A stretch of 64,000 nucleotides of DNA, from NCBI GenBank assembly GCA_037142615.1, contig JBAXAI010000003.1:1-64000 (forward strand), given 5' to 3'. A program made the position numbers and the translations under genes. The notes beneath the pieces were generated by a model. It did not search any database. It was not told the DNA's origin and saw nothing but the letters and a program-made list of their open reading frames with translations. Shown piece after piece: positions 4,233 through 61,324 of this stretch. Numbering within the stretch: position 1 is the stretch's first letter; each line of letters starts with the position of its first letter. Source of the stretch: Spirochaetales bacterium (GTDB taxonomy: Bacteria > Spirochaetota > Spirochaetia > JABEVK01).

Positions 4233-4259
4233 GCGGGTAACATACCGCCAAACAGGGGC

Positions 4260-6073: not shown

Positions 6074-7260
6074 AAAGTTTCCTTCAGGGAGCTTAGTTCA
6101 GGGTGGCGGGCCTTGGCTTGCGCTAGATCACGGAACGGGATGGTCAGCATGGCGTAGTGCGGCGGAATTTGCTTTTTCAGGGCTTTCAGACCCCACGCCA
6201 GCACGGCATTTCGCCACTGCGACGCCCAACCGCGAACGGTGCCTACGCTCATCGAGAGCTCCGAACGAGCGGCGGCGGTGCGGCCGGCCTTGCGGCGGAT
6301 GCGACTGTACAGCTGATTCCACTTTTCGGCCAAAGGGGCGTCGGGTTTGTCCAACCGGGCATCGAGGAGCGCAGCCAGAAACTCGGCGTCGGCGAAGCCG
6401 GTGTTCATGCCCTGCCCGCCGATGGGCGACATCTGGTGGGCGCTGTCACCGGCCAGGTACACCCGCCCCCACGCGTAGTGAGAACTGATCCAGCGGTGGA
6501 TGCCGAAAGGGCTCTGCCAAGTACGGGTGGCCGGATCGAGCTCAATGCCCGTGCGCAGCCGCACCTGGTCTTCGAGGTACGAGCCGGGGTCGTCCATATA
6601 GGTCGGCGTCTGGACGATCCAGCGGCGTTTGCCCTGCCCGAGGGGAAACGACTCGACGGCGCCAAACGAGGTGAAAAAAAGGTGGGCGTCGTGCTTCCAG
6701 CCAGTGGAGTCTTCGTAGTCGCCCATCAAAAAGGTGGAATCGAAGTGCTGCGGGCGCCAGTGGACCTCGATTGAGTTGCGGACCACGCTCTTGACGCCAT
6801 CGCAACCGACCAAGAAGCTGCCCCGTTCGGCTCGCGGATTCCCGGCGGCGTCCTGGAACATGGCCATCAAGAAGCCGGGCCCTTGATCGAAGGACTGAAA
6901 CTCCCAGCCGTATTCGACCGTGACATTTTGAAACTCGCGGAGTTTTTGCTCCAGCAGCATCTCGGTGACGCCCTGAGGGACGGAAAGGATGGGGTTGTCG
7001 AAGTTGACTTCACCCAGAAGCCGGGAGTCCTGACCGTGCACATAGACCTTCTCGATCGAAGCGCCCCACAGTTTGAGGTCGCCGGCCAGGCCGAGCTTGT
7101 CCAAAAGCGCAAGGCTAGGAGGTGAGACGCCGATGGCGTTGCTGCCCGAGGCCCGGGAAGGCCGCTTTTCGAGAACCAGAACCTGCCGGCCGCGTTTGCC
7201 CAGCAGAGCGGCGAGCATCAACCCCACGGGTCCGGCCCCAACGATGATCACTTCGGTCAT
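6070..7260 (-). CDS. FAD-dependent monooxygenase
   Basis: GAGPVG, GCDGVKSVVR, LAGDSAHQMSPIGGQGMNTG. Confidence 0.9.
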   Translation of the reverse strand: MTEVIIVGAGPVGLMLAALLGKRGRQVLVLEKRPSRASGSNAIGVSPPSLALLDKLGLAGDLKLWGASIEKVYVHGQDSRLLGEVNFDNPILSVPQGVTEMLLEQKLREFQNVTVEYGWEFQSFDQGPGFLMAMFQDAAGNPRAERGSFLVGCDGVKSVVRNSIEVHWRPQHFDSTFLMGDYEDSTGWKHDAHLFFTSFGAVESFPLGQGKRRWIVQTPTYMDDPGSYLEDQVRLRTGIELDPATRTWQSPFGIHRWISSHYAWGRVYLAGDSAHQMSPIGGQGMNTGFADAEFLAALLDARLDKPDAPLAEKWNQLYSRIRRKAGRTAAARSELSMSVGTVRGWASQWRNAVLAWGLKALKKQIPPHYAMLTIPFRDLAQAKARHPELSSLKETL

Positions 7261-7310
7261 CTGCTCAGGATACCCTTATTCCCCCCAAGGCTCAAGACGT
7301 TTCACTTTCA

Positions 7311-7328
7311 GCAATTCTTCAGAATTGC
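7311..7328. promoter_or_regulatory. inverted repeat, candidate operator in a divergent intergenic region
   Basis: gcaattct-tc-agaattgc, a perfect 8-bp inverted repeat between the divergent monooxygenase gene and the 7385 operon. Confidence 0.4.
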
Positions 7329-7384
7329 GCCCTTGCCTTGTCATTTCTGAGGGGTACCTTGGAGTCATCACCAAGGAGGTGACG

Positions 7385-7963
7385 ATGAAAAAGATCTTTA
7401 TCACGGGCGCGCTGGTCCTGGGCCTTGCCCTGGCCCTTCCCGCCCAGCAGGCCACGGCCAACGACTGGGTCGAATCGCACAGCTCCACGAAGCTTGCCGA
7501 CCTGACTATTGGCGACCTCAAGGCCCTGGCCGACCAGCAGTCGGTGCAGATGCAAAAGAACCATTATGTGGCCTCGGCGAGCATTGCGTCGTATCTGGCA
7601 CCCGGCTGGGGACAGTTCAAGACCGGTAACGCCGTGGGCGGCGGCCTGTTCCTCGTTGGCGACCTGGCGCTCATGGCCGGCACGATGTACGGAGCCTACA
7701 CCTTGGCTCCCGCTGACGTGGTGGCAACAGGATTGACCATGAAAGCTCGCCACGCGCTGATCGAGAACTACTGGGCCACGGCCCCCGAAAAGATCGCTCC
7801 CGCTGCGGGAGTTTTGGCCGGTGGCATGGCGATCCGGCTGGTCTACTCGATCTGGTCGGCCAAAGACGCCCGCGCCGCCGCTATCGACAACATCCAGTCG
7901 GGCAAGGTGACCTTTGAGCCCTACGACATGGCCAACGGCTTTGGCATGAAGATGAGGTACTAG
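7385..7963 (+). CDS. exported/membrane hypothetical protein
   Basis: AAGGAGG RBS upstream of ATG 7385, signal-peptide-like MKKIFITGALVLGLALALPAQ, APGWGQF motif and two TM segments. Confidence 0.75.
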   Translation: MKKIFITGALVLGLALALPAQQATANDWVESHSSTKLADLTIGDLKALADQQSVQMQKNHYVASASIASYLAPGWGQFKTGNAVGGGLFLVGDLALMAGTMYGAYTLAPADVVATGLTMKARHALIENYWATAPEKIAPAAGVLAGGMAIRLVYSIWSAKDARAAAIDNIQSGKVTFEPYDMANGFGMKMRY

Positions 7964-8374
7964 GTGAAGCCCGCCAAAAAGCCCTCGCCTCTGTTTTGGG
8001 TGGCCTTGGCGGTGACCGGGCTGGGCAGCCTCGCTTTGGGGTTGCTGGTCTGGTTTCTGCCGCCGGAACAAGGCTATGCTTGGATGGCCCGCGGCTGGGG
8101 CCGAGGCGCCGGCGCCGGTGGTTTTGGGATGGGTCACATGAACCCGCTCCCGATGATTCTCGGGTTCCTGTTCGTGGTCTTCGTGATCTCGATGCTGGTT
8201 CGACGCGGTCGCCACGGCCATCACGGCTGGCATCACGGTCACCACGGGCCCGAAGGTCATGGTCATCCGATGTTTGCTGATCCGTTGAGTGATCTGGCCG
8301 AAGCGTACGCCGAGGGTAAAATCACCCGCGAGCAGTACTTGGAGCGCAAGGCTGTGCTGGAGGAAAACCGATGA
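7964..8374 (+). CDS. SHOCT-domain membrane protein with His-rich linker
   Basis: Two TM helices, HGHHGWHHGHH, C-terminal AYAEGKITREQYLERKAVL. Confidence 0.8.
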   Translation: MKPAKKPSPLFWVALAVTGLGSLALGLLVWFLPPEQGYAWMARGWGRGAGAGGFGMGHMNPLPMILGFLFVVFVISMLVRRGRHGHHGWHHGHHGPEGHGHPMFADPLSDLAEAYAEGKITREQYLERKAVLEENR

Positions 8375-48224: not shown

Positions 48225-48245
48225 GTCTGACCCCCGGTGGATTCA
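48225..48245. repeat. REP-like motif copy 1 (gtctgacccccggtggattca)
   Basis: Shares gtctgacccccggtg and cccccggtggattca with 50090-50120; its terminal tca is the Rpn stop codon. Confidence 0.75.
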
Positions 48246-49058
48246 GGATTTCAAAAGCGCCTCGACGGTCGCCGAAGGGAGTCCAGTCAGCGCTGCGACT
48301 TTGGCAACACTCATGCCATCTTCCAACAAGGCCGCTGCGACTTCGGCCTTTCCCTCGGCCTTTCCCTCGGCCTTTCCTTCTGCTTTTACGCTGAAGTAGT
48401 CATGCCGCTCCATTGACTCGTGTATCTCTCTGTAAACTTCAGGTTCAAACATGAGGTACGCCTCCATCCGTTGCTTCGCTGATCCGAGCAAGGCAACCAA
48501 ATCGGCCGGGCCGTTGGCTGGCCTCGTCTCGGGCTTCTCCAAGAATGTGTCCCAAATGGCCGCTTTTTTCAACAGCGTTCGGCGGCTCGGCGACCTCAGG
48601 AGTTTGGGAAGTTCCACGAAGATGAAGCCCAGATGTGCCGTATGTGGTAACCGAAAGTGGTGCAACCAAGGTCCTTTCTTTGAGATCTCATACTCGAGAA
48701 AATTGAGAGAAATGACCGGTTTCAACGTGGCGTAGTTTTCGCCTTTGGGGAGTTGGCGGGCAAAAAGGCGCGCCCAGTAGAACAAGGTCCGCTCGAAATA
48801 GGCGGGTTTGCGGGTAGTTTGCACTTCGACATTGATGATGCGGCCGTTGTCGTCTTCGGCCAACAGATCGAGAATTGCCAGCTTCTCGCCATTGTGTCCT
48901 GGAGTCAATTCTCGGGGCTGGAGCTGCAGCTTGTGGACCAGCGGCAGCCCGACGGCCTCGAAATGGGCGTTGACGAGACTTTCAAGGAGCGGTAAGCCTT
49001 CGGGCTCGCCAAAGACGTGCAAGAAAACGGAGTCGTGAGTGAGCGGGGAATAGGGCAT
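48243..49058 (-). CDS. Rpn family (PD-(D/E)XK) nuclease
   Basis: DSVFLHVFG, LDLLAED, NVEVQ, RTLFYWA, FVELPK; C-terminal (EGKA)n repeats and a GMSVAKVAALTGL HTH tail. Confidence 0.88.
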   Translation of the reverse strand: MPYSPLTHDSVFLHVFGEPEGLPLLESLVNAHFEAVGLPLVHKLQLQPRELTPGHNGEKLAILDLLAEDDNGRIINVEVQTTRKPAYFERTLFYWARLFARQLPKGENYATLKPVISLNFLEYEISKKGPWLHHFRLPHTAHLGFIFVELPKLLRSPSRRTLLKKAAIWDTFLEKPETRPANGPADLVALLGSAKQRMEAYLMFEPEVYREIHESMERHDYFSVKAEGKAEGKAEGKAEVAAALLEDGMSVAKVAALTGLPSATVEALLKS

Positions 49059-49059
49059 T

Positions 49060-49077
49060 TGGTACCTCGAGGTACCA
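49060..49077. promoter_or_regulatory. perfect 18-bp palindrome over the Rpn RBS
   Basis: tggtacctcgaggtacca, immediately upstream of the Rpn ATG. Confidence 0.55.
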
Positions 49078-49180
49078 GACAGGAAAAAGGGGCGTCTTGC
49101 TTCTACGTTGGTAACGAAATCGAAGGAATCGGGGTTTCGTTCTTGGGGACGCAGGCTGCTTTACGCGAATCTAGTTGGAG

Positions 49181-49229
49181 GCCTGGGCGACACTTCGTTT
49201 ACGCTTGGGCGACGCTTCGTTTGCGCCTG
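49181..49229. repeat. 22-bp imperfect tandem repeat x2.2
   Basis: gcctgggcgacacttcgtttac / gcttgggcgacgcttcgtttgc / gcctg. Confidence 0.8.
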
Positions 49230-49233
49230 AATT

Positions 49234-49248
49234 CCCGCGGTGGATTCA
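49234..49248. repeat. REP-like motif copy 2 (cccgcggtggattca)
   Basis: One mismatch to the copy 1/3 core; its terminal tca is the stop codon of ORF 49246-49416. Confidence 0.65.
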
Positions 49249-49416
49249 TTCCACTGGCGGTGTCAGATTACTCCGAAGCAGCTCGTTCAGTAACTGCGAG
49301 GGGTCTTTTCCGGCCTTTTGGGCTTGTTGCTGCAAGAGAGCGGCGAGATCGGCTTCGAGGAAAACAGCCAATCGGTTGTCTGAGCGAGGATAGTACCTCT
49401 TGCCAACGATGATCAT
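49246..49416 (-). CDS. orphan or truncated BrnA-like antitoxin
   Basis: GKRYYP...LAVFLEADL...LLNELLR resembles the 55711-55929 protein (GKFTVP...IPVYLDPEV...VNELLR); no cognate toxin adjacent. Confidence 0.45.
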   Translation of the reverse strand: MIIVGKRYYPRSDNRLAVFLEADLAALLQQQAQKAGKDPSQLLNELLRSNLTPPVE

Positions 49417-49508
49417 GGCAAACGGATTCTGGAAAACACCCTCGGCCTGCTGGAAGGTTACTTTGCGGAATTTGGCGGAGGTCTGTCCCCAGGTGGGAAC
49501 ATGCCCTG

Positions 49509-50027
49509 TTATTGGAGGGTCAACAACCTGTGCGACGGAAACAGCCCTTGCAGCCAGGCCGGCAGAGGAGCGAGCCAGCTTGGTGGGCCAGTCCGTCGAA
49601 GCCCGACGCCGCCCCATTTCCACTGCTCCGGGGTGGAAACCAGTTCGGCCCTGACGGGATTGTTGTCGACGTACGCGAACACACGAAGAAACTCGACAAA
49701 GTTGGGGATAATCCACGAGAAGAACCGGCCACCCCAAAAGTGCCCCCAGAGGCCGTTGGCCTTGTTATAACGGATGGCGAACGTCTGGAGAATCCATTTC
49801 ATGATATTGGCGAGAGTTGAAGCCCCTTTGGGCTGGAGGATCAGGTGAAAATGGTTGCCCATGATCACGAAGTTGTCGAGGTGGAAGTCGAACTTCTCGT
49901 GTGCCCTGGCGAGCACGTCGAGGAACATCTGTTTGACCGTGTCGTGTTCCATCAGGAGTTTTTGGTGGTTGGCCCGGGCCGTGACATGGTATTTGGCGCC
50001 GTCCTGGATGATTCGGGGTTTTCTCAT
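49509..50027 (-). mobile_element. REP-associated tyrosine transposase (RAYT / Y1 HUH TnpA)
   Basis: MRKPR, YHVTARAN, MGNHFHLIL (HUH), GHFWGGRF, YVDNNPVRAELV (catalytic Tyr), PEQWKW. Confidence 0.9.
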
Positions 50028-50089
50028 ACCTGCATGACTGCGATCGAGGCGGTTCTGCTTCTACGAATGACGAAGAAATCGGTTTTGAG

Positions 50090-50120
50090 GTCTGACCCCC
50101 GGTGCCCCCCGGTGGATTCA
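50090..50120. repeat. REP-like motif copy 3 (tandem)
   Basis: gtctgacccccggtg-ccccccggtggattca, about 60 bp upstream of the RAYT start. Confidence 0.75.
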
Positions 50121-50159
50121 CGATGGGATCACCTCTGGAGAGGTCAGTCCCTCCGAAGT

Positions 50160-50393
50160 CTACCGCGAGTGGCTGAGAATAAACTCCCGCAGCGCTGAGT
50201 TCATCAGGGTCTGGTAACCGATCTTTTCTTCACCGGCTTTTTTTCGAAAGTACAGGAGCACATCGTCGTCGAGTCGAATGGAAGTGGAGATTTTCTTCGG
50301 CTGATAGAACCGACCGCGGATTCCCTTGGAGAAGTCGTACTCGTCGGCAAGTTCAAACAAGTCCTCAGATTCTCTCATAGTGCTTTCGTTCAT
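50160..50393 (-). CDS. BrnA family antitoxin
   Basis: EYDFSKGIRGRFY, SIRLDDDVLLYF, GYQTLMNSALRE; start may be ATG 50378. Confidence 0.9.
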   Translation of the reverse strand: MNESTMRESEDLFELADEYDFSKGIRGRFYQPKKISTSIRLDDDVLLYFRKKAGEEKIGYQTLMNSALREFILSHSR

Positions 50394-50649
50394 TCTGGCT
50401 GGCCTCCCTTGCCGAAATAATCCGGATCACTTCTTGACCGTTGGAATCGAAATACAGGTTGGCGACAACGAGAAGCCGGCCGTACGGGGTTTCGCCGATG
50501 GTGATCCAGCGCTCCTCGAAATACGAAAAACGATGATCCAGAAGCGAAACGTGCAGAGGGTCGGCAAACACCAACTTGGCCTCGTCGAACGACACACCGT
50601 GCTTCGCTTGGTTTGAGGCGTCCTTCCCTGCATCCCAGTCGAACGTCAT
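50365..50649 (-). CDS. BrnT family toxin
   Basis: FDWDAGKDASNQAKHGVSFDEA, EERWITIG, IRIISAREA. Confidence 0.92.
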   Translation of the reverse strand: MTFDWDAGKDASNQAKHGVSFDEAKLVFADPLHVSLLDHRFSYFEERWITIGETPYGRLLVVANLYFDSNGQEVIRIISAREASQNERKHYERI

Positions 50650-50866: not shown

Positions 50867-52081
50867 TTACACTTTCCTAACTTTGGTAGCGTCCGGAACC
50901 AAAACGAACCGGCGCTTCCAGTGTGGCGATATTCGACTGGCCACTTCCTCGGTTCGAAACCGCCAACTCCGCGAATGGCGCAGAATACCCAAATAAGAGT
51001 TCATGCTCGCGAGGAAGGCCGCTTTCTGCTCGCGTTTGGGTGGCCTACGGGCGACAACGAGATTATGCCGGTCGATGGCCTGCCGGAAGTTGCTACGAAG
51101 CCGTCGGCTCGGGTACAGCCGGTCGGGACGCACGAAAGCCCCGAGAAACGCCACACCGACACTGGCCCGAGCCAGGCGAATCTTTCGAGGGTGCAAAGTG
51201 AGGGCGAGTCGGTCGTGAAGGAAGTTGCGGATAGCCGCAGTGGCGGTGACGAGCACCTCATGGTCGCGGTGCACCAGGAACAGGTCGTCCACGTAGCGGC
51301 CATAGCTGGCGATGCCTAGGGTGTGCTTCACGTAGTGATCCAGTCCGCTCAGGTAAAAGTTCGCCAGCACCTGCGAGGTCAGGTTGCCAATCGGCAAGCC
51401 GCAGCCCGAAGGAACTTTGAAGAGGCTCTTGTCGGCCGGAAGGTTGTCCCAGCTCGAAAGCGGGCTTTGTCGGCGGCAATCGCGGGTCGGGTCGGCCAGA
51501 ATCAGGTTTCGGAGCAACTGGAGAATCAGTTTCAAGTCGTCGCCGCGGTAAGTCCGGTTGAGGAAATCTTCCAGCAAGTTCAGCAGTTTGGTTCGCTGAA
51601 TGTTCATGAAGAACCCCTGGATGTCGAGACGTAGCACCCAGGGGTCGCAAGGTGGGTTTGACGATTCGCGGCGCAAGAAGCGCTGAAGCCGCGCTATGCC
51701 CAAGTGAGTTCCTTTGCCGACGCGGCACGAATAGCTGTCGTAAATGAACTCGCGCTCAAAAAGCGGATTGAGCCGACGGATCAGCACATGGTGCACCACG
51801 CGGTCTCGGAAGCCGGCGGCAAACACCTCGCGCTTGACGGGGGTTTCCACAATGAAAACGTTCGTGGGTGCAGGAACCCAGCTACCTGCGTTGAGCTCGG
51901 CACAAAGCTCAATCAACGAGTGTTCCAGATCGAGCTCAAAGGCGACGGCGCTGGGTTTATTGCGCTTGTGGCGACGGCACTCATGGTAGGCCTCAAAGAC
52001 TTCGGCCAACGAAAACGCAGGTGGAGAAAGAGGTTGCGGTGTGGCAGTCACACCGCAACCGGCCTGTTCAAGAGCCCGCAC
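50867..52081 (-). CDS. DGR reverse transcriptase (start GTG 52081 or GTG 52051)
   Basis: KREVFAAGFRDRVVHH, YSCRVGKGTHLG, LRLDIQGFF, GLPIGNLTSQVLANFYL, RYVDD, FLG; no maturase or endonuclease domain. Confidence 0.95.
   Translation of the reverse strand: MRALEQAGCGVTATPQPLSPPAFSLAEVFEAYHECRRHKRNKPSAVAFELDLEHSLIELCAELNAGSWVPAPTNVFIVETPVKREVFAAGFRDRVVHHVLIRRLNPLFEREFIYDSYSCRVGKGTHLGIARLQRFLRRESSNPPCDPWVLRLDIQGFFMNIQRTKLLNLLEDFLNRTYRGDDLKLILQLLRNLILADPTRDCRRQSPLSSWDNLPADKSLFKVPSGCGLPIGNLTSQVLANFYLSGLDHYVKHTLGIASYGRYVDDLFLVHRDHEVLVTATAAIRNFLHDRLALTLHPRKIRLARASVGVAFLGAFVRPDRLYPSRRLRSNFRQAIDRHNLVVARRPPKREQKAAFLASMNSYLGILRHSRSWRFRTEEVASRISPHWKRRFVLVPDATKVRKV
52032..52060. other. perfect 12-bp stem-loop just 3' of TR
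   Basis: ggttgcggtgtg-gcagt-cacaccgcaacc. Confidence 0.8.
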
Positions 52082-52183
52082 CGCCCGGACATAGTTTTTG
52101 TTGTTCTTGTTGTTGTTGTTCTGATTGCCATTGTCGAAGTTCTGTTTCCAGGCGTTGTTGTTGTTGTTCTGCGAAGAAGACCA
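52073..52183 (-). repeat. DGR template repeat (TR)
   Basis: AAC-rich; translated in the VR frame it reads WSSSQNNNNNAWKQNFDNGNQNNNNKNNKNYVRAVRA; 43 adenines. Confidence 0.97.
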
Positions 52184-52348: not shown

Positions 52349-52690
52349 TTACCGGTGGGCATTGCGCCATCCGGTGACCTGTTTGCTGATGCCTTCCATC
52401 AACTCGGCCAGCTCGGCCTGGTTGCGGATGGGCAGCAGTTTGAGGTCGGTGCACAGACGGATTTCGAGCTTGAGGACCTCGAAGTCGTCGAGGAAGGTTT
52501 CGAGGGGCACCTCCTTGTGTTGGGTCTTGTGCGCGCGGTAAATGCTGCGCACCAGCGACAAACAATCGCGCTTCATATCTTGGCCCAGGGTGAACTTGTA
52601 CTCGCGGGCAAAGTGCTGGGTGAGCTCGAACACCCGCAGGGTGAGTTTGTACACATCTTTGAACACCGGCAAGTCGTAATAGAGCGCCAG
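52349..52690 (-). CDS. avd: Avd accessory variability determinant (four-helix bundle)
   Basis: LYYDLPVFKDVYKL, FAREYKFTLGQ, LKLEIRLC.DL, ISKQVTGW; lies between target and TR; candidate start GGAG-N6-CTG(52690). Confidence 0.88.
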   Translation of the reverse strand: MALYYDLPVFKDVYKLTLRVFELTQHFAREYKFTLGQDMKRDCLSLVRSIYRAHKTQHKEVPLETFLDDFEVLKLEIRLCTDLKLLPIRNQAELAELMEGISKQVTGWRNAHR

Positions 52691-52700
52691 AGTGAACTCC

Positions 52701-52724
52701 TGAGGGGGGCGACCACCCCCCTCA
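52701..52724. other. GC-rich hairpin downstream of VR (candidate DGR target-recognition hairpin)
   Basis: tgagggggg-cgacca-cccccctca, a perfect 9-bp stem about 30 nt after the target stop. Confidence 0.8.
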
Positions 52725-52755
52725 ACCCCCATTCCAAAAAGTCAAAGGACAAAAG

Positions 52756-55266
52756 TCAAAAAGCCCGCACCGCCCGGACACAGCTTTCGTTGCCCTCGGC
52801 GTTGACGTTCTGATAGCCAATGGCGAAGAGCTGTAGCCAGGCGTAGTAGTTGTCGCGCTGCGAAGAAGACCAGTACCACTGCTTGGCGAAGCCTCCCTGC
52901 CCGTTCTTCGCGAGCACGGTGTAGAGCAGGTTCAGCTCGTCTTTGCTGGGCAAGAACCAGTCGTTGAAGCCGCCGGTGCTCAGGTCGTAGCACAGTTGGG
53001 CGGCGTAGCTACCGCTGCCTTGGGCCGCGATAATGGCCTCGGTGTTGGCTTTGCCGCTGCCGATCTTGGTGTCGGTTTTCACGTCGATGTGGCTGCCGTT
53101 GTACCACTGGATGCCGGCGCTGGCGTCGCTGGGGGCGGCCTCGAGGTAGCGCCATCCACCCGAGTTGTTGCCCTTGTCGTAAAACACAATGCCACCAGCG
53201 GGGCCCAGGTCACCCAGCTTAATCCCGGGTTTGTCGGCCACCACGTTGGTTGTTTGCCCGGCGGCGAGCGTGGCACTGCCCTTGTAGGGGATGCCGTAGT
53301 TGTCGGTCCATCTGACCTCAAGTTTCACGCTCCCCTCGGCCAGCTTCACCGTCAGCGGCGTGCTTCCCATCACCTGCCCGTCCACGTACACCTGCGCCAC
53401 GCCGTCGCCCTTTTTGGTGTTCACGACAAGCGTTCCCACGGCCAAGATGGGCTTGGCCCACTGGCCCAGCGCAAAGTACGCGGCCCGTTTGACGGCGGTG
53501 TTTTGCACCACCACCGCGTTGCTGGTCAGGTTGCGTACCCGCACTCCGCGCACCTCGACGGCGTAGCGCTTCTGGTCGGCTTGGCGCACCAGGCCCCAGT
53601 CCACTTCGGCGGTGAGCGCGTTGGCTTTCACGGCGGCGTCGAGGGCGCGGATGGCGGTCGCGGGGTCGTTGGCCAGGCCCAGTTCGGCCACCAACGGTAC
53701 GGGCGTGAGAGGTACGGTGGCGTCGGCACTGCCCACGGTGAACGGCCAGGTTTTGGCGTTGCGGTCGTAGGTGCCCACCGTGAGCGTGGCGGCGCTGCCG
53801 GTCAGCGTCCAGGTTTTCGTCTGCAAGGTGCGCAAGGTGCTATCGAACTGCGCCCGGATGCTCGCGGTCTGCGCCACGCGCTGCGCCTCGGCGCTGGCTT
53901 TGAGCTGGCTCAGGTCGGCCTGTCGTTTGCCTTCGAGCGTGGCGCGTTCCTGATTTTGACGGGTAGCAAACTCGGCGTCGCTTTCCACGATGTCGGCCTC
54001 TTCTTTGTCGATGGCCTTGACTTGTACATCCCACGTCGCGTTGGTGCTGGCCACGCTCTTGGCCAGCGCGGCGGCGTACTGGCCGTCGACCTCCTTGAGC
54101 ACGGCGTCGAGGCGTTCCACGGTGTCGATGAGCACGTCGGGGTTGTCGCTGGCGGCGGCGGTAGCCAGCTTGTCGAGCTCGGCGCGGCGGGTGGCAGCGA
54201 GGTTTCCCAGTTCGTTCTGCTTGGCGGCGGCTTCGTTGGCCGCTGTTTGCCGTTGCAGGCTCACCTGCTGGGCCTGCGCCGCCAATTGCGCCTGACGGGA
54301 GGCCTCGGCGGCCAGGTTGTCGGCTTCGAGTCTTTTGGCCGCCTGCAGGGCCTGTTGGCGTTGCTGTTCCACCTCGAGCTTCTGTTTGGCGCTGGCGTCT
54401 TTGGTGGTGTTGATCTTGGCTTGCAGTGCCGCCACCTGGGCATCGAGCGCGGCCAGTTCGGCGGTGCTCTTGGCGCTGGCCGACTGCGCCTTGGCGGCGG
54501 CCAAAGCGGGGTCATTGAAGTAAAAGGCCTTCGAGAGCCCGTCGTCCACACGGGGTTGCTGTTTGCCGCTGGTAGCCGCTTTCACATCGGCCTTCACCTG
54601 CGTCATCACCTCGGCCACCGTTTTGCCCGGCGCGGCGAGGTTTTTGAGCACCGCAGCCGTGAACACGCCGTTGCGGCCCGCACCGTCTTGCGCCACGTCG
54701 CCGGGCTGCGTGGCGTAGGCAATCAGCGTTTCGACGTCGCGCGGGGCGGCGATCGCGGCGAGGCCCCGGGTGCCCGACCGGCTGGAACCTGGGAACGGGT
54801 TGTCACGGCAGGCGTCAAGGAAGATGAGCGCCGTGGCCACCCCTGCGTCTTTGATGCGACCCAACACGTCGGCCAATGGCACGCCCCGGCTCTTGGCCTT
54901 GGCGAGGCTGGTGATATCTTCTTTGACTGGAATCAGATAGTTCTCGCCATCGGCTTGCACACCGTGGCCTGCGTAGTAGAACAAAGCGGTGTCTTTGCCC
55001 TTGAGGGCCTTCTGAAAGTCGGCCAAGGCCGCGTCCATGCCTGCGTAGTCGGCGTCGGTGCGCAACAACACGTCGAAGCCTTGCTCGCGGAGCGCGGCCG
55101 CGATGTCGGTGGCGTCGTTCACAGGGTTGGTGAGCGCGTTGCTGGCGTAGGCGCTGTTGCCAATCACCAAGGCAGCGCGGGTGTTTTGAGCGGCCACAGG
55201 AACGGCCACCACGGCGAAGATCAGGGCGAGCGCAAACAACGCAATCGGGCGGCTGAGAGTGTTCAT
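52756..55266 (-). CDS. DGR target: exported caspase-family (peptidase C14) protein with coiled coil, PEGA and C-terminal DUF1566/CLec-like variable domain
   Basis: Signal peptide; ALVIGNSAY, YYAGHG, FLDACRDNPF and GRNGVFT (caspase); VYVDGQVMGSTP (PEGA); GPAGGIVFYDKG...WRYLEAAP, DWFLPSKDEL, YWSSS...VRAVRAF. Confidence 0.92.
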   Translation of the reverse strand: MNTLSRPIALFALALIFAVVAVPVAAQNTRAALVIGNSAYASNALTNPVNDATDIAAALREQGFDVLLRTDADYAGMDAALADFQKALKGKDTALFYYAGHGVQADGENYLIPVKEDITSLAKAKSRGVPLADVLGRIKDAGVATALIFLDACRDNPFPGSSRSGTRGLAAIAAPRDVETLIAYATQPGDVAQDGAGRNGVFTAAVLKNLAAPGKTVAEVMTQVKADVKAATSGKQQPRVDDGLSKAFYFNDPALAAAKAQSASAKSTAELAALDAQVAALQAKINTTKDASAKQKLEVEQQRQQALQAAKRLEADNLAAEASRQAQLAAQAQQVSLQRQTAANEAAAKQNELGNLAATRRAELDKLATAAASDNPDVLIDTVERLDAVLKEVDGQYAAALAKSVASTNATWDVQVKAIDKEEADIVESDAEFATRQNQERATLEGKRQADLSQLKASAEAQRVAQTASIRAQFDSTLRTLQTKTWTLTGSAATLTVGTYDRNAKTWPFTVGSADATVPLTPVPLVAELGLANDPATAIRALDAAVKANALTAEVDWGLVRQADQKRYAVEVRGVRVRNLTSNAVVVQNTAVKRAAYFALGQWAKPILAVGTLVVNTKKGDGVAQVYVDGQVMGSTPLTVKLAEGSVKLEVRWTDNYGIPYKGSATLAAGQTTNVVADKPGIKLGDLGPAGGIVFYDKGNNSGGWRYLEAAPSDASAGIQWYNGSHIDVKTDTKIGSGKANTEAIIAAQGSGSYAAQLCYDLSTGGFNDWFLPSKDELNLLYTVLAKNGQGGFAKQWYWSSSQRDNYYAWLQLFAIGYQNVNAEGNESCVRAVRAF
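52762..52872 (-). repeat. DGR variable repeat (VR)
   Basis: Encodes WSSSQRDNYYAWLQLFAIGYQNVNAEGNESCVRAVRA; 89/111 identical to TR. Confidence 0.97.
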
Positions 55267-55272
55267 GCACAA

Positions 55273-55301
55273 AACCTAGGCGATGGAGCGCTCTGCGTCA
55301 A
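55273..55301 (-). promoter_or_regulatory. leaderless sigma70 promoter of the DGR target
   Basis: TTGACG-N17-TAGGTT-N6-ATG(55266). Confidence 0.6.
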
Positions 55302-55411
55302 CGGGCCATTGCAAATGGAGGCGTTGCTTCGCACACCAACACTTCGAAGATTTGTTCCGAAACACACAAGCAAAACGGACGAAGTCCCCGTTACCACCAT
55401 GGGAGGGCAGC

Positions 55412-55714
55412 GTGGCGCTGGACTTCGACTGGGACATAGACAAAGACCTGGCAAATCGGAAGAAGCACGGTCTAGCCTTCGCCGAAGCGGCAGAAGTGTT
55501 TTCGGACGTTGATTTGATGACAAAATTTGACTGGGATCATTCCGATGGGGAAGAACGTTTCATCTCGCTTGGTCAATTGCCAAGTGGAATCACGCTCGTT
55601 GTCTGCCACACGATTCGCAACCGCGCTGGGGTCGAGGTGACCAGAATCATCAGTGCGCGAAAGGCTGACAAGGGTGAGCAAGCAGCTTACTATGAAGGGA
55701 AGGACGCCGAATGA
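55412..55714 (+). CDS. BrnT family toxin
   Basis: FDWDIDKDLANRKKHGLAFAEA, HSDGEERFISLG, RIISARKA; GGAGG-N5-GTG. Confidence 0.9.
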   Translation: MALDFDWDIDKDLANRKKHGLAFAEAAEVFSDVDLMTKFDWDHSDGEERFISLGQLPSGITLVVCHTIRNRAGVEVTRIISARKADKGEQAAYYEGKDAE

Positions 55715-55929
55715 GAGAACACTATGACTTTCGAGGTGCAGAGCGTGGCAAGTTCACAGTGCCCCGCGACCAACTCAGGATTCCCGTGTATCTTGACCCC
55801 GAAGTTAGCCAAGGTCTGAGGGAGTTGCTCCCTACGTTCGAAATGGGACTGGAAGAAACCGTGAACGAACTCCTGCGTCGAGAGCTTGAGAGCCTGCGCC
55901 AGAAAACCCCCAAGTCGACTGGTACCTGA
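55711..55929 (+). CDS. BrnA-like antitoxin
   Basis: MREHYDFRGAERGKF...IPVYLD...VNELLR; ATGA overlap with the toxin. Confidence 0.82.
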   Translation: MREHYDFRGAERGKFTVPRDQLRIPVYLDPEVSQGLRELLPTFEMGLEETVNELLRRELESLRQKTPKSTGT

Positions 55930-56009
55930 CCGCGCCCAAGCTGTTGAACTTGGGCCAATCCCGCAAGCAAAACCTCGTCAACCTCCGTTAGCTCAGGTAC
56001 AATGGAGGC

Positions 56010-56615
56010 ATGAGGAACATGGGAATCCCCGTACGAAAGTTTGACCAGCACTACACCTACCGCGACTACCGCCAATGGACCGGCGAGCGATGGGAACTCA
56101 TCCACGGCGTGGCCTACAACATGAGCCCGGCACCAAGGATTCCGCATCAAGGGGTGTCGGGCGAGATCTTTGGGCAGCTGCGGGATTTTCTCAAAGGGCA
56201 ACACTGCACGCCTTTCCACGCGTCCGTCGATGTGTTTTTCCCTCCGCTGCGCGAAATGGAGGAGGACGACGTGGACACCGTGGTGCAACCCGACGTCCTG
56301 GTGGTCTGCGACAAAACCAAGATCCGCAACAACGGCATTTGGGGTGCGCCGGACCTCGTGGTCGAGATTCTGAGCAAGTCGACCAGCCGCAAAGACCAGC
56401 ACGAAAAGTTCGACCTGTACGAGCGCGGTGGCGTGCGCGAGTACTGGATCGTCGACCCGAACGGCCAGTGGATCCAGCAGTACGTCCGCGAGGGGAACGG
56501 CAAGTTCGGTGTCGAGGTGACCTTCGAAAAGACCGGTCGCGTGGCCAGCGCCGTACTACCCGGCTTCGAACTAGACGTCGACGAAGTCTTCGCCGCGGGG
56601 CAACTTCCCGCATGA
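56010..56615 (+). CDS. Uma2 family endonuclease
   Basis: RWELIHG, MSPAP..HQ, VVQPDV, GAPDLVVEILS, GVREYWIVDP. Confidence 0.92.
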   Translation: MRNMGIPVRKFDQHYTYRDYRQWTGERWELIHGVAYNMSPAPRIPHQGVSGEIFGQLRDFLKGQHCTPFHASVDVFFPPLREMEEDDVDTVVQPDVLVVCDKTKIRNNGIWGAPDLVVEILSKSTSRKDQHEKFDLYERGGVREYWIVDPNGQWIQQYVREGNGKFGVEVTFEKTGRVASAVLPGFELDVDEVFAAGQLPA

Positions 56616-57099: not shown

Positions 57100-57264
57100 A
57101 TGTCGAAAGCCCACCGGGGAAAACCCCTTCGTGAAACCCCCAACAGCAGCCGGGGTACTTGCCCCAGTTGCAGCCGCACCGCCATCAAGGTCGTGTACGA
57201 GCTTGAAGTCGCAGGTGCCAAGACCAAGGTCTGCAAGCAGTGCAAGGCCAAGGCGAAGGCCTAA
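57100..57264 (+). CDS. small basic zinc-ribbon protein (54 aa)
   Basis: AAGGAG RBS; MSKAHRGK...RGTCPSC...KVCKQC with two CxxC pairs. Confidence 0.75.
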   Translation: MSKAHRGKPLRETPNSSRGTCPSCSRTAIKVVYELEVAGAKTKVCKQCKAKAKA

Positions 57265-58178
57265 ACCCAGCGCATCGTCTCGTCCGCGAGCTGTCCCGGA
57301 TCCTTCTGGGCAAGGACGAGCTTCTGCGGCGCGTGGCCCTGGCCGTTTTGGTCGGCGGCCATGTGCTCATCGAGGACGTTCCCGGGGTGGGCAAAACCAC
57401 ACTGGCGAAAGGCCTCGCTGCGGTGTTGGGCGCCAAGTTCCGCCGCATTCAATTTACCCCCGACCTGCTTCCGTACGACATCACGGGGTTTGATGTGTTC
57501 CACCCCGAAACCCGGCAGTTTGAGTTCCACCCAGGGCCGATCTTCGCGCAGGTGGTGCTGGCCGACGAAATCAACCGCGCCACGCCCAAGGTTCAGGCGG
57601 CCCTGCTCGAGGTGATGGAAGAACACCAGGTGACCAGCGGTTCGGTGACCCGGCCGATGGAACCGTTCTTTTTGGTGCTGGCCACGCAGAACCCGTTTGG
57701 CACCGAGGGCACCTACCCTCTGCCGTCGGCCCAGCTCGACCGCTTCTTTTTGCGCCTGTCGGTGGGCTACCCCGATTCGGCGTCCGAACGGGCGGTGTGG
57801 TTGCAAGACCCGGGCCACCACCTTTCGACGCTGGTTCAACCGTCGGTCAGTGTGGACGAATTGCTGGAACTGCGGCAGGGCTTGGATACGGTGCACGTGT
57901 CTGAAAAACTGCTGAACCTGATCGAAGCGGTGATTGGCCGGACCCGCAACCATCCGTCGGTGCTGCTGGGCCTGAGCCCCCGCGCCGGTGTGCACCTGGT
58001 GAAGGCCGTGCGCGCCTGGGCCTGGCTAGCGGGACGCGACTTTGCCACCGCGCGCGATGTCGCCGAGATCGCCGTAGACGTGCTGGCGCATCGGTTGCAG
58101 CTTCGCGACTTGGGCCTGAGCGCTCAAGCCGTGCTGCAAACCGTGCTCGACGAGGAGTTGGCACGCCATGAAGCGTGA
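57240..58178 (+). CDS. MoxR family AAA+ ATPase (start uncertain)
   Basis: EDVPGVGKTT, RIQFTPDLLPYDITG, LADEINRATPKVQAALLE, ATQNP, AQLDRF. Confidence 0.92.
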   Translation: MQGQGEGLNPAHRLVRELSRILLGKDELLRRVALAVLVGGHVLIEDVPGVGKTTLAKGLAAVLGAKFRRIQFTPDLLPYDITGFDVFHPETRQFEFHPGPIFAQVVLADEINRATPKVQAALLEVMEEHQVTSGSVTRPMEPFFLVLATQNPFGTEGTYPLPSAQLDRFFLRLSVGYPDSASERAVWLQDPGHHLSTLVQPSVSVDELLELRQGLDTVHVSEKLLNLIEAVIGRTRNHPSVLLGLSPRAGVHLVKAVRAWAWLAGRDFATARDVAEIAVDVLAHRLQLRDLGLSAQAVLQTVLDEELARHEA

Positions 58179-59252
58179 TCCGGGGGCCAAGCGGTTCCCG
58201 CTGACCCTCACCGGCGCCGGTTTTTTTTTGCCTCGTCGGTCCTGCTGACCGTCGGCTTTGTCCACGGGGAGCTCGCCACCCTGCTGTGGGGCGCGTTGTT
58301 CGCCTTTCTGGTCGTTTACACCGCCAGTGTTTCGCTGCTGCTCCGTCTCCGCGTTCCTGATTTGGTGGTCGAACAGGTGTTGCCGGCCGCCCATTCGGGT
58401 GAACCGACGAGACTTTCGTGGCGCTCGGGCTTGCCGGTGACGCCGCCTTTGTTCGTTTGGTCGGTGAGCGTGGTGGCCCGCCATGGGGCGCACCGCAAGG
58501 CCGTCGGCCGGTTTGACCTGGCTGCGGGGGCCTGCTCGTGGGAACTTTTGCGGGGGACCTACCAGACGACGGCCCGCCTGGAACTTCGCGACCTGTGGGG
58601 GCTGACCCTCTGGCGTCCCCGCGCCCGCTTCGACCTGACGATCAAGGTGCTCCCCGCGAAGTTTGCGTCGGCGGTGCCCCTGCCGACCGCGCGTCCCACC
58701 GACCTGACCGGTCCGCGCCAAGCGGTGCGCCGCTCGGGTGAGGCCTTCGACGTGCGGCCGTATCAGCCGGGTGACGACTTGCGCCGCCTTCACTGGCCCT
58801 TGTGGGCGCACTCGGGGCAAACGTGGCTGCGAATCCCCGACCTGACTCCACCCCCGACAGGCCTGAGCGTGTGGCTGGTCGATCTCAGCGTCCCGGCTTC
58901 GACACCGGATCCCGAGGCGGTGCTCGACCTTCGGGCTGGGAGCCTGGCGTTCTGGCTTCAGCCTGGCGAGGCGTGGACTCTGCAAGTGCCAGCGCTGGGC
59001 TTGGCTTGCAGCAATCCCGGCGAGTTGGGCAACTTCCTGGCGGCGCTGACGCCGAGTCAGGACGCACCTGACCCGGGCGAGCGCTGGCTTGGGAGCCTGC
59101 CGCCGGAAGTGCTTGTGGTGACAGGAGAGGGCAGTCCGGGTCTAGAAGCGTTGCGGAGGCTGCTCGAGCCCCGCACGCGGGTTCGGCCGGTGCTGGTTCC
59201 CCTGCCTTCGCCGATCGTGCTGGCCCGGCCTCGCTGGTGGGAGCGCCGATGA
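58168..59252 (+). CDS. DUF58 protein interrupted by a frameshift in a T9 tract (58221-58229)
   Basis: GAGGAG RBS with ATG 58168 reads to a stop at 58246; one extra T joins it to the frame carrying DLWGL and RPYQPGDDLRRLHW. Confidence 0.8.
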
Positions 59253-61324
59253 CAACCCTTCTGCGTCTGGCTTCGCTGGGCTTTCTGGCGTGGAACTACG
59301 GCCTCTACTTTCCCGGGTTGGTCAATCCGGTAGCCCTGGTCGCGATCGCCGCAGCGGCGCTGGCGGGGGGCCTTTTTACGTCGCGGACCCGAGCGTGGGT
59401 GGCGGCGTTGGCGTCCGTTGCCGTGTGGCTGGGGCTCCGCTTGCTCTTGGTCGGTGTGCCGCAAGCGCTTTCGTCGTTTTCGGCAACGCCCTTGCCTTGG
59501 GATACTTGGCCCCTGGCGGCCGACCGCCATCTCGTGTTCGCCTTGCCGGTGGTGGCGCTGGGTTGGTTTGAGGGCTGGTGGTTCCGACCCGGCCGCTCCT
59601 CGCCGGCCAGGGAACGGTTGGTTCACGCCCTCGTGCTGGTGGCGTTGTTCTGGGCCCAGGGGCCTTTCCACCTCACGCTGTACTCGTCACCGTTCCTGTT
59701 CGGGCTGGTCCTTTTGCCGTATTTGGCCGTCGAGGCCTACTTGCTGATTCCTGAAGCCAGGCTCGTGGCTCGGCGAACCTTGGCCTCGGTCGCGGGCGTG
59801 CTGCTGCTCGTGCTGGCCGTCGTCGCGGTGCTGTGGAGCCTGTTCGGCAAGTACGAGGAGCTCTCGACAGCGTCGGGAGGGGGCCTGATGAAGCCCGACC
59901 TGTTCCAGTTTGACTTTTCACCGTTGATACGGCTCGAAACGCAGATCTCGCTGAGCGACCACTTGGTGCTACTTTACCGCGAACCCGGGCCAGGCACCAA
60001 GCGGTATTTGCGCCGTTTCGTCTTGTCGGGCTACGACCCGGCCAAGGGGTTCTTTGTCGACCCACCGGCCGGGGGTGGCGAAACCGCGCTTCCTCCTGTG
60101 GGGCACAAAGCTCTCACTTTCCCGAACAATGAAAGCTTGCCGGGGCGACAACTCGTTACGCAGGAATACTTTCTGGTGAACCTGGACCCTGCGTCGCTGC
60201 TTGCGCTCAACGCGCCGGTGCGGTTGCAACCGTACGCCCGCTGGAACAAGTCGTCGTTCGTGAATGCCTACAAGGTCGAGTCTCGCGTGGCTGGCGACCT
60301 GTACTGGGAACTCGGCGACGAACCCGGCGACGGCTTGAACGACGCCGAGAGGCAGCACGACTTGCGCTGGGGCGACGATGCCGAACTCCGGGAGCTGGCC
60401 CTCAGCATTACCGCCCACGCCGAAACGCCCTACGAAAAAGCGCTGGCGGTGCAGAACTACCTCAAGGACAATTTCCTGTATTCGCTCAAGCCAGGCGAGC
60501 CGGGACCCGAGGGGGCGCTGAAGCACTTCTTGTTCCAGTCGAAGAAGGGCTATTGCTCCTACTTTGCGTTTTCGATGGCGCTGCTCTTGCGAAGCGTGGG
60601 GGTCCCGGCCCGGGTGAGCGTTGGGTTTTTGACCAATCCCGACGAAAAAGTGCTCGACTTTTACCCTGTGAGGGCCTTCCAGGCTCACGCCTGGGTCGAG
60701 GTACCGTTTGGCACCTACGGCTGGGTCGACTTTGACCCCACCAGCGAAAACTTAGCGCCGGGGGAAGGACTGACCTCGCCCAAGGGGATGGATCCCGACG
60801 AAATGACCCGCATGATCGCCGAGATTCTCAAGGCCCAGCCGGTGCCGCTCACGGAAACTCCTTCGGAAGCGGTTTCGGCCCAACCCGAGTGGAGCGTGGG
60901 GGCGGCAATGGATTGGGGGCGTCGTTTTGGAGGCCTGCTGCTGTTGACGCTCCTGCTGCTGGCTCAGGAGTTCTACCGGCAGCGCTTCCGCGCCAAGGCT
61001 TGGTTCGCGCCACCCCGGCAAAAAGCCGAACTCGCGTGGCGCCACCTGCGCTGGAAGGCCCTGCAGGTCGGGTTGGGCCCACAGGCCGCCGAGACCCCAG
61101 GCCAGTGGGCCGACCGTGTCGACTTGGCTCAGGGTTGGGTGCAAGGGCTCGAACGCGCACGCTACTCTGCCGAGTTTTCACCAGCCGAGGCGAAACTCGC
61201 TTGGTCGGAGCTTCCGGCGATCACGAGGGAGTTGGCCCTCCGCGGAAGGAATCTTCGTTGGGGCCGCGCGCGGTTGGTCGCGATGGTCGTGTTCCCGTGG
61301 TGGCCGCATCGGAGGCCACGTTGA
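59249..61324 (+). CDS. membrane transglutaminase-like domain protein
   Basis: Multi-TM N-terminus; GYCSYFA, GVPARV, HAWVEV and DFDPT (Cys-His-Asp triad). Confidence 0.9.
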   Translation: MTTLLRLASLGFLAWNYGLYFPGLVNPVALVAIAAAALAGGLFTSRTRAWVAALASVAVWLGLRLLLVGVPQALSSFSATPLPWDTWPLAADRHLVFALPVVALGWFEGWWFRPGRSSPARERLVHALVLVALFWAQGPFHLTLYSSPFLFGLVLLPYLAVEAYLLIPEARLVARRTLASVAGVLLLVLAVVAVLWSLFGKYEELSTASGGGLMKPDLFQFDFSPLIRLETQISLSDHLVLLYREPGPGTKRYLRRFVLSGYDPAKGFFVDPPAGGGETALPPVGHKALTFPNNESLPGRQLVTQEYFLVNLDPASLLALNAPVRLQPYARWNKSSFVNAYKVESRVAGDLYWELGDEPGDGLNDAERQHDLRWGDDAELRELALSITAHAETPYEKALAVQNYLKDNFLYSLKPGEPGPEGALKHFLFQSKKGYCSYFAFSMALLLRSVGVPARVSVGFLTNPDEKVLDFYPVRAFQAHAWVEVPFGTYGWVDFDPTSENLAPGEGLTSPKGMDPDEMTRMIAEILKAQPVPLTETPSEAVSAQPEWSVGAAMDWGRRFGGLLLLTLLLLAQEFYRQRFRAKAWFAPPRQKAELAWRHLRWKALQVGLGPQAAETPGQWADRVDLAQGWVQGLERARYSAEFSPAEAKLAWSELPAITRELALRGRNLRWGRARLVAMVVFPWWPHRRPR

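Follow-up and report, generated by a model that had tools for sequence, protein, structure and literature searches.

Discussions of DGR targets mostly deal with adhesins, phage tail fibres and cytoplasmic sensors. In cyanobacteria, orthocaspase-CLec proteins also serve as DGR targets, and their CLec domain is reportedly of the FGE-sulfatase type. Such caspase-fused targets have been published from cyanobacteria (Vallota-Eastman et al., 2020, PMC7517822), bearing out the original prediction on this point, and also from Thiohalocapsa. The cyanobacterial proteins resemble the spirochete protein described here in combining an N-terminal C14 domain with a C-terminal DGR-diversified CLec domain and in having undiversified paralogs in the same genome. 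However, they are reported to be mostly cytosolic, whereas the spirochete protein begins with a signal-peptide-like N-terminus and adds a 230-residue helical stalk, a PEGA domain and a DUF1566/Lcl_C head. DUF1566-type targets were included in the survey of Wu et al. (2018, PMC5758913), the main text of which mentions no peptidase or caspase domain. Our literature searches found no description of an exported caspase-fused DGR target of the DUF1566 type, in agreement with the earlier statement that no characterised exported one was known, and the supplements of PMC8144416 (Supplementary Data 5, domain annotations of targets), PMC7517822 (Table S3, with signal peptides) and PMC10907252 (SI Figs S10-S11) may list similar proteins.

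The locus comes from a freshwater spirochete and lies in a window of 64,000 nucleotides, the whole stretch of DNA that was analysed. The target gene (52756..55272, minus strand; stop codon at 52756-52758) encodes 838 aa from a TTG start at 55272 or 836 aa from an ATG at 55266. Since a 96% identical relative, P0002, starts at the latter, the ATG is more likely the true start, and the feature previously placed at 52756-55266 was confirmed there on the minus strand. The encoded protein comprises, in this order, a signal-peptide-like N-terminus, a Peptidase_C14 domain, an A/Q-rich helical stalk, a beta domain, a PEGA domain and a DUF1566/Lcl_C head with VR, and the gene is followed downstream by avd, TR and RT. 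We propose that a recently active DGR diversifies the head of a Sec-exported caspase-fold protease and that this head aims proteolysis at a changing ligand. The DGR would rewrite up to 23 codons in the DUF1566/Lcl-type CLec head; after export to the periplasm or the cell surface, the variable head would bind a changing external or periplasmic ligand and thereby tether the protease to, or direct it at, this ligand or whatever carries it, with the head as binder and the protease as effector kept apart by the long stalk. We regard this explanation as a whole, Sec export included, as about evenly balanced between being right and being wrong.

The DGR itself is complete. VR (52762-52872, minus strand) covers codons 801-837 of 838 and contains 23 diversifiable codons, corresponding to a theoretical diversity of about 10^24 variants of the binding surface. 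It forms a repeat pair with TR (52073-52183, minus strand), which has 43 adenines in 111 nt. Over this 111-nt core the two repeats differ at 22 positions; 22 of 22 are TR adenines, every one lies at the first or second position of its codon, and not a single non-adenine mismatch was found. Mismatches confined to TR adenines are the defining DGR signature, and the adenine-only pattern is far beyond chance. The accessory gene avd (52349..52732, minus strand; 127 aa) matches Pfam bAvd with 63.7 bits (cut-off 40), and its match to NCBIfam DivGenRetAVD reaches 52.6 bits, under the cut-off of 80. The reverse transcriptase gene (50867..52081, minus strand) encodes 404 aa counted from the first GTG, although translation may really begin downstream of TR; the product scores above the Pfam cut-off for RVT_1 (E 2.3e-16) and shows IGNLTSQ and YVDD, and we take the [LIV]GxxxSQ motif to be a hallmark of DGR reverse transcriptases. 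A GC-rich hairpin with a 10-bp stem and a 4-nt loop (52701..52724, minus strand; dG -12.7 kcal/mol, z -2.6) is situated 37 nt downstream of VR and is presumably a candidate DGR target-recognition hairpin with a role as in BPP-1. Only one VR for this TR was found in the genome; five other DUF1566 genes of the same genome were compared as further targets and rejected, each showing 23-43 non-adenine mismatches.

Comparison with P0002 revealed no change over residues 3-604, while 21 VR residues (806-831) differed, all of them at codons with an A in TR. A near-identical protein with an entirely different VR thus argues that the DGR acted recently. Moreover, a third VR variant was read by eye in a contig of a sequencing run from a different study (X5), where the 30 letters that enter VR differ from TR at four positions, all TR adenines, and from the VR of the window at nine. 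In an alignment of 35 family members, the columns of TR-A codons have an entropy of about 3 bits, and values of 0-0.6 bits were obtained for the scaffold columns (Trp, Ser, Ala, Phe, Gly, Val and Arg), whose codons lack A. Judged by its sequence, the target-avd-TR-RT cassette is complete and recently active. Conversely, the VR/TR pair might be a relic with the present VR fixed and diversification over: DGR loci can decay, as seen at the related locus L139, where the RT is broken into two ORFs, and the low-depth Logan contigs are too fragmentary to reveal within-sample VR variation; in runs X3, X5 and X6 no listed contig spans VR, for which low depth or heterogeneity are equally possible reasons. 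The intact state of RT, Avd and TR, the zero non-adenine mismatches in 111 nt, the complete turnover of VR in P0002 against zero changes in residues 3-604, and the third variant in X5 nevertheless make a fossil DGR very improbable. No RNA run containing the target was among the sequencing runs listed.

The protease domain (residues 32-251; 54520..55179, minus strand) matches Pfam Peptidase_C14 with an E-value of 4.6e-37 and 128.4 bits (cut-off 21.4). The claim of an intact His-Cys dyad held, as the AGHG motif with His103 (54964-54966, minus strand) and the DACR motif with Cys155 (54808-54810, minus strand) align with YYAGHG and LDMCR of the MALT1 paracaspase. Foldseek placed MALT1 at the top for this domain, with MALT1 and caspases at E-values of 1e-13 to 1e-9 and a sequence identity of 22-24% to the MALT1-type matches. 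Furthermore, Asp53 and Asp153 align with acidic residues of MALT1 which we assume to be the S1-pocket residues giving Arg/Lys specificity, and since two of the three MALT1 S1 acids are thus aligned, the predicted protease probably cleaves after Arg or Lys. H103, C155, D53, D153, R165 and R169 are invariant in 35/35 aligned family members, among which identity falls to 32%; the invariance of the dyad and of the S1-aligned acids argues for selection on catalysis, and the domain is predicted to be a catalytically intact protease. The invariant Arg165/Arg169 loop sits after the catalytic Cys, and autoprocessing may occur there. A complex prediction with two copies of residues 29-500 gave scores of 0.01 and 0.29 against a mark of 0.42, and hence no answer either way.

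The signal peptide claimed for this protein was recovered as a signal-peptide-like N-terminus (residues 3-28; 55189..55266, minus strand) by inspection and a Kyte-Doolittle scan, a heuristic reading based on a single Arg, a stretch of 19 hydrophobic residues and VAA|Q, which directly precedes the caspase domain. The Sec (SPase I) features seen by inspection, a basic n-region followed by a hydrophobic h-region, with small residues at -3/-1, were found by the same heuristic in 35/35 family members, all of which show a comparable basic residue and hydrophobic N-terminus before the caspase domain. Inspection of residues 3-28 found no lipobox Cys, and in the predicted structure the segment is disordered or helical with pLDDT <50. 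Of the C14 matches in the same genome, 20/22 start with a signal-peptide-like segment.

Between protease and head lie three further regions. The A/Q-rich stalk (residues 255-485; 53818..54510, minus strand) contains 25% Ala and 12% Gln, which bears out the A/Q richness noted earlier, and is modelled as four long helices; no Pfam match was found for these residues. It was detected in 0/11 other genomes of the order and 9/400 other genomes of the class, with all full-length stalk matches 22-30% identical, and close orthologs were thus seen only among metagenome proteins. Next to it, predicted structure and family comparison delimit an unnamed domain, beta-rich and including a single helix (residues 486-610; 53443..53817, minus strand), which is kept across the family and in a paralog of the same genome (C20); an Atlas search with residues 255-610 returned no usable match. 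Both the PEGA domain and the terminal DUF1566/CLec domain of the original prediction scored above their Pfam cut-offs. PEGA (residues 613-677; 53242..53436, minus strand) reached 24.4 bits (cut-off 20.8), and the Foldseek matches of this region are transthyretin-like domains of carboxypeptidases. The DUF1566/Lcl_C head, of C-type-lectin fold (residues 690-838; 52759..53205, minus strand), matches Lcl_C at 716-836 with 37.7 bits (cut-off 34.9) and has VR inside it. It also matches the C-terminal domain of Legionella Lcl (8q4e; Foldseek E 2.5e-6, TM 0.73 by target; phmmer E 6.7e-7) and, by Foldseek, a Bacteroides fimbrial protein (4eps).

The gene had been put forward as the best candidate for an undescribed system, but it turned out to be one member of a large family, since by our own count 72 of 120 relatives listed combine C14 with Lcl_C and its own genome encodes about 20 caspase-family paralogs, most of them with a C14 domain without a recognisable binding head. 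No RT, Avd or TR was present within 5-7 kb of two close full-length homologs (58-60% identical), and the architecture is thus not dependent on a local DGR. On the other hand, C14-CLec DGR targets recur elsewhere: two loci of the same class, L134 and L136, have DGRs with signal-peptide C14 FGE-CLec targets, and at L139 a DGR whose RT is 35% identical to that of the window adjoins a C14-stalk gene. A full C14-stalk-Lcl_C protein (L138) is encoded 319 kb away from L139 and shows 25 adenine and 7 other mismatches to the L139 TR, so that it is apparently diversified in trans by the L139 DGR. DGR-diversified C14-CLec proteins with predicted export therefore recur in other genomes of the class. A contig scan with caspase-domain patterns only gave 80 loci from many phyla that match mainly or only C14, and a metagenome scan confirmed two relatives among 592 pattern matches. 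A far broader proposal would be that exported caspase-fold proteases with DGR heads (DUF1566 or FGE) form a family-wide, antibody-like extracytoplasmic system in this spirochete class, in which several paralogs are sometimes served by one TR in trans and proteolysis is retargeted against foreign proteins that keep changing, for example phage receptor-binding proteins, competitor surface proteins or incoming toxins, as a programmable arm of defence or predation; we consider this speculative and rather unlikely.

The resemblance of the head to the Lcl adhesin domain and to a fimbrial protein raises the question of whether the protein acts chiefly as a variable adhesin or binder, in the manner of lipoprotein DGR targets from Legionella and Treponema, with an auxiliary C14 domain that would serve self-processing, release or maturation, or would bind external targets without cleaving them. 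PMC5758913 places DUF1566 DGR targets among surface or adhesion proteins, and relatives commonly encode DUF1566 proteins of about 200 aa that stand alone, a C-terminal 583-aa query having found matches in 22/61 genomes, nearly all over the DUF1566 part. In addition, split forms exist, with a separate DUF1566 gene downstream of the C20 paralog and with the C14-stalk and Lcl_C parts of L139 in separate ORFs, so that protease and head need not be covalently joined, which also counts against the targeting model. However, an auxiliary role of C14 fits poorly with a dyad and S1-aligned acids that stay invariant in 35/35 members despite such low identities, and C14-CLec fusions occur with two CLec types, Lcl_C and FGE, which suggests that the pairing itself is selected. 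We therefore find a mainly adhesive function doubtful.

A further alternative concerns what binding would do. Caspase-fold proteases are commonly activated by proximity, and ligand binding by the variable head might cluster or rearrange the protein and switch the caspase on, so that a signalling or killing substrate would be cleaved; the protein would then do outside the cytoplasm what the DGR-CLec conflict systems do inside it. The invariant Arg-containing loop after the catalytic Cys and a weak match of the caspase domain to NCBIfam caspase_w_EACC1 are in line with this idea. So are literature reports that propose DGR-diversified CLec domains to be antigen sensors acting through coupled peptidase effectors (PMC10907252) and that describe fusions of DGR-type domains to the cysteine proteases found beside EACC1 (2025 preprint, PMC12642450). 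Nevertheless, the caspase_w_EACC1 match of 57.9 bits falls short of the cut-off of 140, no conserved small neighbour ORF of an EACC1-associated caspase module was found, and the target has no conserved partner, effector, adaptor or substrate gene as a neighbour in the window, at L131 or at L132. On the opposite strand, 2 kb from the target, there is an operon with a MoxR (AAA_3) gene, a transglutaminase gene and a DUF58 match too weak to reach its cut-off, but this divergent operon is separated from the target by a BrnT toxin-antitoxin pair and a Uma2 gene. Because the operon is missing from 12/12 homolog loci, a functional link with the target was rejected; likewise, no neighbourhood of a MoxR-vWA (VMAP-type) ternary conflict system is conserved with the target over these 12 loci. 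Since the published systems are moreover mostly cytoplasmic, in contrast to the export signal here, we judge a binding-triggered sensor to be improbable, and the sequence does not separate triggering, as originally suggested, from plain targeting or independent binding.

By prediction, one exported chain joins a conserved cysteine protease to a binding surface open to about 10^24 possible variants, and several spirochete genomes show this protease-CLec pairing again, with two CLec types. Were the head to aim or gate the protease, the protein would be a natural binder-effector fusion acting outside the cytoplasm, relevant to defence against phages and competitors in diderm bacteria, with a bearing on what the many exported caspase homologs of bacteria do, and of possible use as a starting point for targeted proteases that can be evolved. 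Otherwise the gene is simply one more multidomain DGR target.

With respect to known systems, the antigen-sensor conflict systems (Dore et al., 2024, PMC10907252; Kaur et al., 2020, PMC7159879) likewise couple a DGR-varied CLec domain to a caspase-like or trypsin-like peptidase, and some of their targets carry signal peptides. However, those systems are built on STAND or MoxR NTPases, vWA proteins and adaptor domains, whereas the spirochete target has no conserved NTPase, vWA or adaptor neighbour and holds protease and CLec in one chain with a predicted export signal. The EACC1-associated caspase modules (bioRxiv 2025, PMC12642450) also fuse a caspase-like protease to a DGR-type variable domain, but they are cytoplasmic defence systems, in contrast to the predicted export of the spirochete protein, which in addition lacks a conserved small partner ORF and stays below the caspase_w_EACC1 cut-off (57.9 against 140). 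MALT1 and the bacterial orthocaspases share with it the caspase fold, the S1-aligned acids and a His/Cys dyad placed in matching motifs; in contrast, identity is only 22-24%, and the spirochete protein, a protease by prediction, is putatively exported and has no death or Ig domains. Legionella LdtA and the other DUF1566-type category d targets (Wu et al., 2018, PMC5758913) belong to the same VR family and CLec subtype, are extracytoplasmic and have VR at the extreme C-terminus, ending in the same conserved motif. In contrast to these targets, which are lipoproteins or have adhesion, Ig or fimbrial domains, the spirochete target is not a lipoprotein by inspection of its N-terminus and carries a protease domain.

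One minus-strand ORF (52756-55266) makes up the DGR target gene, whose product has 836 aa if translation begins at the ATG at 55266 and 838 aa if it begins at the TTG at 55272; the ATG is more probably the start, since P0002, a metagenome protein 96% identical to the target, starts there. Pfam matches above the curated cut-offs were obtained for Peptidase_C14 (residues 32-251, E 4.6e-37), PEGA (613-677) and Lcl_C/DUF1566 (716-836), and the five features of the original prediction, i.e., a signal peptide, a C14 domain with its dyad, A/Q-rich helices, PEGA and a DUF1566 head holding the VR, were all found. AlphaFold2, given 35 sequences, modelled the whole protein with a mean pLDDT of 86.5 and a pTM of 0.46; here, an N-terminus of low confidence (residues 1-28) precedes the caspase domain (32-250), a stalk (255-485; 25% Ala, 12% Gln) of four long helices (255-289, 293-372, 378-422, and 432-485), a beta-rich domain (488-601), PEGA (612-679) and the C-terminal head (695-838). 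The stalk and the beta-rich domain matched no Pfam family, and an Atlas search with them gave no usable match. When modelled separately, residues 486-838 reached a pLDDT of 91.6 and matched the Bacteroides fimbrial protein 4eps and the C-terminal domain of Legionella Lcl, 8q4e (TM 0.73 by target).

Downstream of the target, all on the same minus strand, lie avd (52732..52349; Pfam bAvd, 63.7 bits against a cut-off of 40), the TR (52183-52073, with 43 adenines) and the reverse transcriptase gene (52081..50867; RVT_1), whose translation contains YVDD and IGNLTSQ, the latter being a DGR hallmark motif. The VR (52872-52762, minus strand) has a 111-nt core in common with the TR, in which all 22 mismatches fall at TR adenines and at codon positions 1 or 2, and its 23 diversifiable codons allow for about 10^24 possible proteins. 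A GC hairpin with a 10-bp stem is located 37 nt past the VR. No second VR for this TR was found by a genome-wide pattern search of G000, the genome holding the window, and five other DUF1566 genes of G000 were rejected as its targets, with 23-43 non-adenine mismatches each.

P0002 is identical to the target over residues 3-604; residues 605-777 hold 14 differences and residues 806-831, within the VR, another 21, all 21 of the latter at codons with adenine in the TR. Logan contigs were also aligned to the locus and differences counted by eye; one contig that runs into the VR comes from X5, a run of a different study, and its 30 letters there show four differences from the TR, each at a TR adenine, and nine from the VR of the window. 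Together, P0002 and the X5 variant indicate that the VR has been rewritten repeatedly in close relatives of the target. Across the 35 members of the aligned family, TR-adenine codon columns have an entropy of about 3 bits, compared with 0-0.6 bits for the scaffold columns (Trp, Ser, Ala, Phe, Gly, Val, Arg), whose codons contain no A. Judged from the alignment, DGR diversification has left its footprint across the whole family. Set beside this turnover, a fossil DGR appears highly improbable. The 14 non-VR differences of P0002 are all in PEGA and the head scaffold (window 52941-53460), and could be caused by recombination of the C-terminal module or by selection on the scaffold. Contigs from X5 and another run, X2, join window 54456 to 55019 with 16 other letters between; their source may be a paralog or relative whose caspase domain differs.

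At the N-terminus of the target, a single Arg is followed by a hydrophobic run of 19 residues and then by VAA|Q, directly ahead of the caspase domain, and no lipobox Cys was seen on inspection of this sequence. In all 35 members, a basic residue precedes a window of 12 strongly hydrophobic residues that begins within the first 22 residues; in many of them an Ala-Gln type site ends the hydrophobic segment, and in one a lipobox does so instead. The signal peptide originally proposed is thus seen as a signal-peptide-like N-terminus throughout the family, and export of the target is a well-supported prediction.

The top Foldseek matches of the target model were MALT1 paracaspase and caspases (E 1e-13), and in a phmmer alignment AGHG and DACR of the target pair with MALT1 residues of the catalytic motifs. 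In the same alignment, Asp53 and Asp153 pair with two S1-pocket acids of the paracaspase, which suggests a predicted Arg/Lys cleavage specificity. H103, C155, D53, D153, R165, and R169 are unchanged in all 35 members, at identities down to 32%. The target could alternatively be mainly an adhesin to which C14 is auxiliary, but invariant catalytic residues argue against a passive C14 domain, and we find this unlikely. Instead, we put at about even chances a mechanism in which the variable head would bind a changing ligand outside the cytoplasm and thereby deliver the protease, from which the long stalk holds it apart, to this ligand or to its carrier. The features shown are the DGR, the intact and conserved protease residues, the conserved signal-peptide-like N-terminus and the CLec head with its VR.

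Relatives of the target numbered 1958 at E <= 0.001 among 8000 database candidates; among the 120 matches listed, 72 have C14 with Lcl_C and 11 C14 with FGE-sulfatase, and the source names listed point to Spirochaetota. The 12 homolog loci with usable flanks differed in their linkage to DGRs. Two of them are DGRs that have C14 FGE-CLec targets with signal peptides, i.e., L134 with two (12 and 14 adenine mismatches) and L136 with one (13) beside a small FGE target (7). At L139 (G185:C1:393000-411000), in another genome of the class, a C14-stalk gene comes first; next to it is an Ig-Lcl_C target of its own (25 adenine mismatches), and then follow an Avd 64% identical to that of the window, a TR and an RT as two ORFs. 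On the same contig, 319 kb away, L138 (G185:C1:712000-730000) encodes a protein that has the full set of signal peptide, C14, stalk, Ig and Lcl_C parts. Against the L139 TR, its 3' end shows 25 mismatches at adenines and seven others, making it a probable remote target; one TR appears to serve both the Ig-Lcl_C target beside it and this distant, full-length caspase-Lcl_C protein. In contrast, RT, Avd, and TR were all absent within 5-7 kb of the full-length homologs L131 and L132 (58-60% identical), and the flanks of the six remaining loci held no DGR. Caspase-fold proteases with predicted export are paired with DGR-varied heads across the spirochetes, and the target is a real, well-formed case of this pairing.

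Within G000 (4.27 Mb, 76 contigs), 22 Peptidase_C14 matches correspond to about 20 genes, and 20 of the 22 have a signal-peptide-like N-terminus, making this an unusually large expansion of caspase-family genes with predicted export. Among 17 paralogs scanned, one has Lcl_C, one FGE-sulfatase and the others C14 alone; four or five caspase-family genes cluster on contig C27. A paralog on contig C20 (C20:59280-62347; L005, L123) lacks the head, ends in a hydrophobic segment and is followed by a separate DUF1566 ORF. Its caspase domain is 91.5% identical to that of the target but its stalk only 47%, which suggests that the protease module was recently exchanged between paralogs. G000 has two more DGRs outside the window, both with FGE-sulfatase-type VRs and neither with C14 in its target: on C67 (about 378-4034), where an RT homolog lies close by, a TR-like repeat differs from the VR of a 680-aa ORF by 12 mismatches, all at adenines, and on C55 (about 3397-7996) the TR shows 19 such mismatches to the VR of a 953-aa ORF, whose N-terminus is of the lipoprotein type.

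BrnT/BrnA pairs lie on both sides of the DGR cassette. On one side, BrnT (50365-50649) and BrnA (50160-50393) are accompanied by an IS200-like Y1 transposase gene and a PDDEXK_2 nuclease/transposase gene (within 48243-50649), and on the other a second BrnT (55283-55714) lies beside a Uma2 endonuclease gene (within 55283-56615). Since toxin-antitoxin and mobile-element genes flank the cassette, its setting suggests an island. Divergent from the target, on the plus strand (57240-61324), is an operon of a MoxR-type AAA_3 ATPase gene, a weak DUF58 match below the cut-off and a transglutaminase-like gene, which was absent beside the target homologs in all 12 loci. No gene adjoining the target was common to the window, L131, and L132. 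The original prediction was a sensor, in which ligand binding by the head switches on proteolysis; however, a conserved substrate or adaptor gene was not found for the target and its caspase_w_EACC1 score was far below the cut-off, so that we doubt this reading and favor delivery of the protease by the head.

Full-text literature searches turned up no account of a C14-DUF1566 DGR target that is exported, although supplements may hold one; the main text of a global DGR survey contains none of the terms "peptidase," "protease," "caspase," or "Spirochaet" (PMC8144416). DUF1566-class DGR targets are, in the account of the class in PMC5758913, described without any peptidase, whereas the target has C14. 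A 2012 survey of prokaryotic caspase homologs notes N-terminal helices, probably signal peptides, and 33 C14-FGE-sulfatase fusions (PMC3501461). CHAT and caspase-like domains are mentioned in DGR conflict systems of Thiohalocapsa (PMC10907252), and a 2025 preprint refers to cysteine proteases adjoining EACC1 fused to DGR-type domains (PMC12642450). Caspase-fused DGR targets in cyanobacteria, as originally stated, are in print: there, caspase/orthocaspase domains are fused to DGR-varied CLec domains in proteins that are mostly cytosolic, unlike the target with its predicted export signal (PMC7517822).
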